15,448 nt of DNA from a virus (Duplodnaviria > Heunggongvirae > Uroviricota > Caudoviricetes), in the IMG/VR virus record IMGVR_UViG_2703718838_000010. One strand, given 5' to 3'. Made by a program: the position numbers and the translations under genes. The notes under the pieces are model-generated. The model saw nothing but the letters and a program-made list of their open reading frames with translations. It was not told where the DNA came from and ran no database searches. This document shows, piece by piece, positions 4,551-7,500 of the stretch. Each line of letters starts with the position of its first letter. Positions within the stretch are counted from its first letter, which is position 1.

Positions 4551-7500
4551 TCAGCTGATACTGATACCTGCTGTGGATTTTTTCATCACCACAACCAGCA
4601 GATCGCTGATACTGGTTGTTGGTGTCCAGTTATTCGCTCCTGATGAAGATACGGTGAATGTCAGTGTCAGCGTCCCCTGTCCGGCAGGCATATCTATAAC
4701 TGAGGAAAATACGCCCTGAGCATCCGTCGTGGACTGATTAAAAATCTCCTGACCATTGCGGGTCACTCTTAACCGGCAGGTTGAATACCAGTATGACTGT
4801 TGGTTATTACTGTTGAAATTCTCATGCTTACCACCGCGGAATAACACTGGCGGTATCATGACCTGCCGGTCAAATTTCTGATCATCACTGATTCTTACCG
4901 TGATGGTGCCACTGGCATAACTGTTCGTGCGGGGGAAAGACTTGCTGACCGTTTTGACAATATCGCCTTCAATCTGATTGGCTGACAGTTTCCCCTTAAT
5001 CTGACAGTTTTCATTAATCGTGACATTGTTGAGCGTCCCTGAATTTGCATTCACATTACCGCTGATATCCGCATTTTTAGCGGTCAGCTTTCCGTCTGGT
5101 GTCAGGGAAAATGCCGGCGGATTTCCACCGCTGGTAATGGTGGGAGCCGTCAGGCGTTTCAGGAACACGTCATTCATGAATATCTGGTTGCCCTGCGCCA
5201 CAAACATCGGCGTTTCATTCCCGTTTGCCGGGTCAATAAACGCGATACGGTTAGCGGCAACCAGAAACTGGCTCAGCTTGCCTTCCTCCGTGTCCTCCAT
5301 GCTGAGGCCAATACCCGCGACATAATGTTTGCCGTCTTTGGTCTGCTCAATTTTGACGCCCCACATCGCATTCCATTTATCGTTAGCGTCCTTCCACTCT
5401 TTCGAAAACTCATCCAGTCTGCTGGCGTTATCCTCCGTCAGATCAACTTTTTCCAGCAGCTCTTTACCGAGATGGGATTCGGTTATCTTGCCTTTGAAAA
5501 AATCCAGGTAACCTTCCGCATCATCGCTCGCCCGACCGACGGCCTCCACGAATGCCGATTTGCCAACGGTGTTCACACTGCGGATATAAAAGTAATAATC
5601 ATGGCCCGGTTTGATATTGATACTGGCGGCTATCCAGTACAGCCCCGCGCCAAGGTAGCGGGCTGTGGTTTCAACCTGCCTGATATCGGTAATCCGCGTT
5701 TCCGAGAACCAGAACTCAAACTGTACCGTCGGATCATAAACCGCAAGATGCGGCGTGGCAGTTATCTGAAAATAGCCCGGCGTCAGCTCAATCCGCGACG
5801 GTGCTACCGGTGCGGCAATCCTGAACGATACCGACGCCGGATCGCCCTGCTGTCCCCAGGCATTTACCGCCCGGACTGTCAGCGTGTACCGTCCCAGCGC
5901 CAGTTGCGTGAAGCGGTATGTGGTTTCCGTCGTCCGGGCCGTGCTGACCAGCCGCTCACTGCCGTCATCCGCTGCCACGGTCAGGCGAAGCATAAAGCTC
6001 ACCCCCTTCACCACCTTCGGCGTGTCCCAGCGCGCCAGCACCTGATATTCCCCGCTGTCTGCGGTGACTTCGGCAGTCAGGTGCTGCACCGCTGGCGGCG
6101 TGACACCATTCACCGTGCCGCTCTGGTCGCCGTCAAAGTGCGCCCCGTTATCCACGATGGCTTCTTTTTCCGGTACATGCTGCACGGCAGTGATGGCATA
6201 CGTGCCGTCATCGTTCTCACGGATACTCACACAGCGGAACAGGCGCTGGCGCAACGTCGGCAACTTCAGCCCCCATACGCTGTATCCGGCAACGCCGTCA
6301 GGAACACGGCTCACTTTTACCTTCACGCCGTCGGTGACGGACTGGACCTCCACGCTGACCGGATTGCCACTTCCGTCAACCAGGCTTATCAGCGTGATAC
6401 CGGAGGATGGCAGCGTGATTTCACGGTCGAGCGTCAGCGTCCGGGTCTGGCTGTTCACCGCCAGCACGCGCCCGCCGGTGCTGATACCGGCATAGTCATC
6501 ATCGCAGATTTCAATGACATCGCCCGGTACATGGCGAAGCCCTTCAGCACCCACGCTGAAGTCCACGGTCTGCGTTTCCAGCAGCTCCGTTTTAATCAGC
6601 CACAGCCCGGCGCGGTGTGCCTGCCCCCGGCTGGTACAGCCAAAGGCATCCATCTTCGTGACGTTACGACCGTAACGGGCGATGGCCTGCGTGTCCTCCA
6701 CAAGCTCTGTTGCCGTCTCCCAGCCGTTGTTCGGGTCAATCCAGTTCACCTCAACGGCATTATGGCGGTCCTTCAGGGCGCTGAAGCTGTAGCGGAACGG
6801 CGCGCCATCATCCGGCATCACCACATTACTGCGGTTATAGGTCCACACCTTATCCGACGGTCGGTCCTGCACGAACGTCAGCGTCTGCCCGTTCCATACC
6901 GGCATACAGCGCATCGCCGAGCAAAAATCACTGAGCACATCCCACGCCTTGCGCTGTGTGGTCAGGTACGCATTACAGGTGATGCGCGGCTCCGTGCCGC
7001 CAAAGCCGTCCGGCACTGACTGGTCGCAGTACTGGCCGATGACATACAGCGCCCATTTATCCACATCCGCTGCACCAAGACGTTTCCCCATGCCGTAGCG
7101 CGGATGGGTCAGCATATCCCACAGACACCAGGCCATGTTATTGCTGTATGCTGGCTTAAACGTTCCGTCCCAGATACCGCTGTATTGCCGCGTCTGCGGG
7201 TTATAGTTCGACGGCACCTGCAGAATGCGCCCGCGAAGATGATAATTACGGCTCACCTGCTGACTGCCGAACTGCTCCGAGTCCACCTGCACGCCGACCA
7301 GTGCCGTGTTCGGGTAGCACTGTTTCACATCGATGATTTCGGTGTATGACGACCAGAGCGTTTTGTTCTGCAGCTGGTCTGTGGTGCTGTCCGGCGTCAT
7401 CCTGCGCATCCGGATATTAAACGGGCGCGGCGGCAGGTTATCCACCACCACCGAGGCCAGATACTGCGAGGTGGTTTTGCCCTTAATGGTGATGTCTTTT

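Follow-up and report, generated by a model that had tools for sequence, protein, structure and literature searches.

Exchange of J C-terminus modules among lambdoid phages is textbook knowledge. The present analysis concerns gene J, encoding the central tail fibre or tip attachment protein, of a lambdoid element recorded in IMG/VR as IMGVR_UViG_2703718838_000010 (Caudoviricetes); the window is the whole stretch of 15,448 nucleotides that was analysed, and all features described in it lie on the minus strand. The closest described system is A8, the J C-terminus of a natural E. coli prophage that was fused to lambda gpJ at residue 964, with the aim of obtaining lambda particles that use OmpC in place of LamB, for use in the gut (Brödel et al., Nature 2024, PMC11338833). 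In these particles the side fibre was swapped for a lambda-P2 chimera, so that the retargeting maps to the J C-terminus (PMC11338833). With MG1655 lacking lamB and ompC and supplied with plasmid-encoded OmpC, A8 particles delivered into 95% of cells, compared with 1.9% for wild-type lambda gpJ (source data of PMC11338833). A second relative, the Stx2a phage vB_EcoS_phi330 (PV189401), does not lyse the ompC knockout of the Keio collection and regains plaques with Plac-ompC (PMC12502783); on a panel of 54 Keio knockouts of outer-membrane proteins it failed only on the ompC mutant (panel membership, Table S2, taken as given). In an AlphaFold3 model of the phi330-OmpC complex from the same study, the hairpins E953-S962 and A1015-P1020 lie in and on the barrel of OmpC. 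The central tail fibre of phage 434 is also reported to use OmpC (PMC12502783; PMC11101478), although it would recognise the porin differently, as the contact loops lack conservation between the 434 and the phi330 type (PMC12502783). Comparison with these systems leads us to regard the window as an intact lambdoid tail module whose J is very probably a natural mosaic of a lambda backbone and an A8-type end, docking onto OmpC and not LamB.

Gene J (4551-7949) is intact and encodes 1132 residues plus stop, which is the length of lambda gpJ. Its translation contains the six gpJ Pfam domains in canonical order (FNIII-A_GpJ, Phage-tail_3, Ig_J, Ig_J_second, Phage_Tail_Tip and Ig_GpJ_C), all above the curated cut-offs, and its gene context is that of lambda, with M-L-K-I-J followed by lom, stf and tfa, collinear with lambda 13407-18461. 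By both architecture and context, J belongs to the lambda gpJ family.

For comparison with lambda J (NC_001416, 15505-18903), the proteins were aligned with BLASTP, and DNA identity was recorded in 60-nucleotide windows. The overall identity of 90% (1017/1136) breaks down into 97.3% over residues 1-964 (938/964, with 26 residues differing) and 48.5% over residues 965-1132; over residues 985-1132 it is 44.1% (63/143), with four small indels. The DNA is 95.2% identical over J nucleotides 1-2892 and 51.7% identical over nucleotides 2950-3396. Across J nucleotides 2821-3060 (window positions about 5129 to 4890), successive 60-nucleotide windows yielded 55/60, 48/60, 37/60 and 22/60 identities, and the last long lambda-identical stretch of the protein stops at residue 964, with the break at about residues 965-985. 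These identities and breakpoints are direct observations. The backbone, comprising the hub, the FNIII domains, the helical shaft and most of the beta-prism (residues 1-964; 5058-7949), is thus delimited by its identity to lambda and 434B. The remainder (residues 965-1132 plus stop; 4551-5057), delimited by its identity to A8 and phi330, holds the last layers of the beta-prism and the receptor-binding domain. The immunoglobulin-like (Ig-like) receptor-binding domain proper spans residues 1008-1132 (4554-4928, by translation; PF12421, Ig_GpJ_C, E = 4.9e-36). An earlier note on this DNA, made from the sequence alone, had described J as lambda-like for about 980 residues, a fair figure given this break, and the peptide strings it quoted were all found exactly in the translation. 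It had also correctly placed a C-terminal region of about 150 residues unlike that of lambda (window 4551-5000, which is J residues 984-1132 plus the stop codon and coincides with the block of low identity). A refinement is needed here: judged by its sequence, the region is a diverged homologue of the lambda C-terminus, not unrelated sequence, as both belong to PF12421 ('Tip attachment protein J, C-terminal receptor binding domain').

In a PDB sequence search with J residues 917-1132, the best-matching chain was 'A8 gpJ 713' (9WCA and 9WCB; phmmer E = 9.3e-139), with lambda gpJ chains far lower (E ~ 1e-70). Apart from N965, which is serine in A8, and the first codon, which the tool renders as M, the two sequences are the same; over residues 917-964, where the A8 construct derives from lambda, there is no difference. 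The A8 fusion point at lambda gpJ residue 964 is also the natural junction with lambda-type sequence in J. Aligned to the 3' end of J, the A8 DNA given in the supplement of PMC11338833 differs only by a small number of substitutions and by gaps from machine reading, whereas its alignment to lambda is poor. The entries, both released on 2026-01-28, are titled 'Closed state of A8 gpJ 713 central tail fiber' (9WCA) and 'Open state of A8 gpJ 713 central tail fiber with OmpC G17 from E. coli EDL933' (9WCB), as retrieved with Foldseek; a search with E. coli OmpC showed that 9WCB also holds three OmpC chains. Only titles, dates and sequence identity were used from the Foldseek search, as the single-sequence AlphaFold2 model of residues 917-1132 was poor (mean predicted local distance difference test score of 48) and the Foldseek template-modelling scores and root-mean-square deviations were consequently not meaningful. 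The identity of the J end with a protein already studied by others for its biochemistry and structure is thus observed directly, and since it matches A8 except at residue 965, with the same junction, OmpC is the receptor to be expected.

The comparison with phi330 leads to the same allele. The receptor-binding domain of phi330 is 98.6% identical to that of J, with two differing residues, both in a loop that reads TNSY or TSTY, and over residues 965-1132 the identity is 98.2%. Both hairpins predicted to contact OmpC are identical in the two proteins: J residues 1043-1052 (4794-4823), predicted to enter the OmpC barrel, correspond to phi330 E953-S962, and the ANNWTP hairpin at residues 1105-1110 (4620-4637) corresponds to A1015-P1020 (PMC12502783). 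At the position of the former, lambda has a deletion of five residues. By near-identity, the receptor-binding domain of J belongs to the A8 / phi330 OmpC-binding allele, and adsorption of this element should be dependent on OmpC and independent of LamB. Residue numbering in PMC12502783 is shifted by 90 relative to that of full-length J. The deposited phi330 J (locus 3349-6477) is annotated with 1042 residues and preceded by a separate, overlapping ORF for a 'hypothetical protein' (3062-3412); its N-terminus has probably been split by a frameshift or mis-annotation.

Several further observations bear on how J acquired this end. The same C-terminal domain (98.6-100% identity at the protein level) is found on the J of phi330, where residues 91-964 of the backbone reach only 73.8% identity. 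Conversely, 434B shares the J backbone (97.8% of residues) as well as the flank of lom and Stf (94-100% nucleotide identity in 50-nucleotide windows), and carries a third allele at window positions of about 4551-5000. The G+C content drops from 57.8% in the rest of J (5058-7949) to 46.2% in the segment 4551-5057, which fits a different evolutionary history for the latter. Identity profiles against lambda, 434B, phi330 and Stx2 phage 1717 have distinct breakpoints: relative to lambda, the replaced block also takes in most of lom (low identity at about 3951-5000), and relative to 434B, essentially only the receptor-binding domain differs. Together, the abrupt step relative to lambda, the phi330 backbone, the third allele in 434B and the drop in G+C favour cassette exchange over drift in place. 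Across these comparisons, the receptor-binding domain behaves as an exchangeable cassette of about 450-500 base pairs with conserved flanks.

Drift in place of the J C-terminus from a LamB-binding ancestor, with LamB still in use, could draw on the homology of the J end to that of lambda (Ig_GpJ_C), at 44% identity and with some conserved motifs retained, such as FDRQ, IDMPAG and KK..GISI. We nevertheless consider this scenario to be close to excluded. DNA identity falls stepwise, from 95% to about 52% within some 60 nucleotides; in phi330 the same domain is joined to a backbone of 74% identity; A8 lambda particles deliver into lamB-deleted cells and depend on the OmpC variant supplied; and ompC was the only knockout on which phi330 failed in the panel of 54. 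Continued use of LamB was rejected on these grounds, being largely refuted by the A8 chimera, phi330 and the stepwise DNA identity. The J end likewise falls outside the LamB-binding allele of lambda, from which it is separated by indels in four variable segments in addition to the low identity; the four indel segments that differ among J, lambda and 434 probably correspond, by analogy, to the receptor loops L1-L4 of lambda. A 434-type allele was rejected as well, at 46.9% identity over residues 985-1132. The two interpretative claims of the earlier note, that the C-terminal region of J had been swapped and that a receptor other than LamB is used, are thus borne out by exchange and by the A8-type domain with its OmpC complex, respectively. 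The alignment it had proposed, with lambda and with J proteins of known receptor, returned a C-terminus that does not match lambda closely and is near-identical to those of the OmpC-binding A8 and phi330. What the note did not recognise is that this end is a common, already characterised allele with OmpC as its specific receptor.

A mechanism for host recognition can be drawn from the analogy to lambda gpJ and LamB (PMC11101478) and from how 9WCA and 9WCB are titled. The central fibre ends in trimeric C-terminal Ig-like domains, which would dock onto the trimeric porin OmpC via their bottom loops, with the loop hairpins (residues 1043-1052 and ANNWTP) inserting into and around the OmpC barrel. 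The domain would then spread and the beta-prism compact as the fibre moves from the closed to the open state, and this change would be relayed to the hub and open the tail, as in lambda. As for its origin, the mosaic J most likely arose by homologous recombination between lambdoid phages or prophages; crossovers in the conserved segment coding for the beta-prism (residues ~890-964) upstream, and in the conserved 3' end of J together with lom downstream, are plausible. We infer that this particular element expresses its J, assembles virions and adsorbs to OmpC.

A number of points weigh against the assignment of J to OmpC, or limit its reach. The substitutions N965 (serine in A8) and TNSY (TSTY in phi330) are not known to be neutral, although the TNSY/TSTY loop is reported as not contacting OmpC (PMC12502783). 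OmpC dependence of phi330 could, taken alone, stem from its side fibres; it is the A8 chimera and 9WCB that tie OmpC to J. A search of the literature library found no publication on 9WCA and 9WCB, such that the structural claim rests on the titles and chain contents of the entries. Delivery by A8 depends strongly on the OmpC allele: across 23 variants it exceeded 90% for most, but was as low as 7% for G40 and 46% for G56 (PMC11338833). Use of OmpC therefore does not mean that every E. coli would be infected. Finally, adsorption of this element is deduced from sequence likeness, with nothing in the sequence contradicting use of OmpC, and the window covers the tail region only.

The A8/phi330-type J end ranks among the commonest J alleles of E. 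coli. Of 5426 complete E. coli genomes, 2545 contain a match to a 450-nucleotide segment of the cassette; for the best match, identity was 99% or more in 1213 records and between 95 and 99% in another 279. Within the phage collection, the segment occurs at 99-100% identity in Stx1a, Stx2a and Stx2c phages, in YYZ-2008, 2H10, Chlobot, Turner, PhiR70_1 and PhiR29_2, and in Salmonella phage SPF_0923. Around it, a graded family of alleles was apparent, with protein identities to the J end of about 82% in 4A7, mEp460 and 1H12, 78% in Stx2 phage 1717, 61% in Stx2a phages of the WGPS2 type, 46% in 434 and 44% in lambda. As to published receptors for these relatives, the SNIPE paper on temperate PhiR phages derived from ECOR (PMC13190303) is without receptor data for them, and a receptor-prediction preprint of 2026 treats GpJ of the Drexlerviridae type, without this allele.

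Many lambdoid prophages of E. coli are defective. The element could accordingly be a defective remnant whose J is not built into virions, its receptor specificity being without present function. Only 15.4 kilobases of tail genes are visible, and no complete E. coli genome matches the whole window at more than 98.2% identity, the value found for the best matches, E. coli E275a and HN68. Yet all eleven tail ORFs, from the tube gene through tfa, are open and of full length; this J end recurs at 99.6-100% nucleotide identity in isolated phages (among them Chlobot, 2H10, Stx1a phages, and PhiR70_1 and PhiR29_2, which were propagated on E. coli C); and 98% of the window is matched by Salmonella phage SPF_0923, with 96.9% identity. 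A remnant is thus unlikely.

Downstream of J, the cassette is flanked by lom (3885-4484), encoding an outer-membrane protein of the Ail/Lom family (Pfam Ail_Lom, E = 2.5e-120). It represents a non-lambda allele: the protein is 46% identical to lambda Lom, and the DNA is 92-100% identical to phi330, 434B and Stx2 phage 1717 in 50-nucleotide windows. Putative terminators, each a GC-rich hairpin followed by a T run, were located by a consensus scan between the J stop and lom (4514-4533) and just after lom (3837-3858). Lying on either side of lom, they may set it off as a transcription unit of its own; both are consensus matches only, two having been found where 0.9 were expected from shuffled sequences.

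Next follow the gene for the side tail fibre, stf (797-3826, 1009 residues, intact), identified as ORF and by Pfam, with its real start probably at the ATG at 3820 (MAVKISG...), and tfa (213-797), encoding the side-fibre chaperone, identified likewise. The N-terminus of stf is 86% identical to lambda stf in nucleotides, and the distal tip of the protein shares 68% of residues with lambda orf-314 across 249 aligned columns, the His-rich repeats containing indels. The presence of this intact pair downstream of J opens up the view that J binds OmpC but that Stf/Tfa mainly set the host range, J being the final trigger and its swap of minor consequence. The side fibres of Ur-lambda bind OmpC and render adsorption 10-30 fold faster (PMC12617516), Gifsy-1 is reported to use both Stf and J (PMC12312913), and the resemblance of the Stf tip to that of lambda points in the same direction. 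On the other hand, a swap of the J C-terminus alone sufficed to retarget lambda particles (PMC11338833), and a leading role of Stf would complement docking of J onto OmpC and is not a true alternative to it. As a competing account we regard it as quite improbable. A related but unlikely option is that the J tip and the side fibre, whose tip is related to the OmpC-binding Stf of Ur-lambda, share OmpC in a self-competing scheme of one receptor and two steps, or else that the Stf tip, rich in indels, has come to recognise a different receptor, so that two receptors would be used again and the roles of OmpC would be the opposite of those in Ur-lambda. In designing their particles, Brödel et al. 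purposely avoided such a shared-porin situation of J and side fibre (PMC11338833).

The remainder of the window is filled by the upstream part of the same tail gene cluster, in the order tube protein to tfa according to the ORF list and Pfam. The tube protein (14573-15436, Pfam Phage_tube_2) is followed by two chaperone-like ORFs, the tape measure (10356-13589, identified as ORF and by Pfam) and the genes M, L, K and I, which precede J. The tail module is intact, in that M, L, K, I, J, lom, stf and tfa each have an uninterrupted reading frame and match their expected Pfam family. A lambda-like block of DNA extends from the M gene through J residue ~985 (4993-10047; lambda 13407-18461) with 94.6% nucleotide identity. 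The tape measure and tube genes have no DNA similarity to lambda H or V, and since the lambda-like DNA stops at about 10047, a second mosaic joint lies at the M/H boundary. The tape measure has 1077 residues, compared with 853 in lambda, and a G+C content of 44.9%; the tail is presumably longer than that of lambda. Clades of tape measures have been linked to dependence on ManYZ (SNIPE paper, PMC13190303), which might be relevant to the tape measure found here.

As a discovery, the mosaic J carries little weight, since it is already known in sequence, function and structure: the A8 allele has served to redirect lambda particles to OmpC in the gut, has been solved with OmpC (9WCB), and has been tied to OmpC in a natural Stx phage. 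Its value is in annotation, where J can be labelled as an OmpC-specific tail tip of the A8 / phi330 type in place of a generic 'host specificity protein J'. As the allele is widespread, including in Stx1a and Stx2a phages, this is relevant to host-range prediction for Stx and other lambdoid prophages, and also to the choice of gpJ variants for delivery vectors.

Set beside the known systems, J shares with the LamB-binding lambda gpJ (PDB 8XCJ/8XCK, 8IYK; PMC11101478) its length, its domain order and the Ig-like fold family of its receptor-binding domain, and differs from it in the sequence of that domain, in its four variable segments and in the receptor, which is LamB for lambda and expected to be OmpC here. 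Phage 434/434B (OL657227) is closely related in the J backbone and the lom flank and differs in the receptor-binding allele. With phi330, in contrast, the receptor-binding domain is held in common, as are the lom and Stf N-terminal flanks (92-100% nucleotide identity); the differences lie in the J backbone and in phi330 being a Pankowvirus that carries stx2a and has its side-fibre genes annotated in pieces. The closest counterpart remains A8, which has S965 in place of N965, and from whose lambda-derived backbone J departs at the 26 of 964 residues in which it differs from lambda. A8, however, is a construct in an engineered cosmid-packaging strain with a lambda-P2 side fibre, whereas J described here is the gene of a natural tail module with an intact side fibre of its own.

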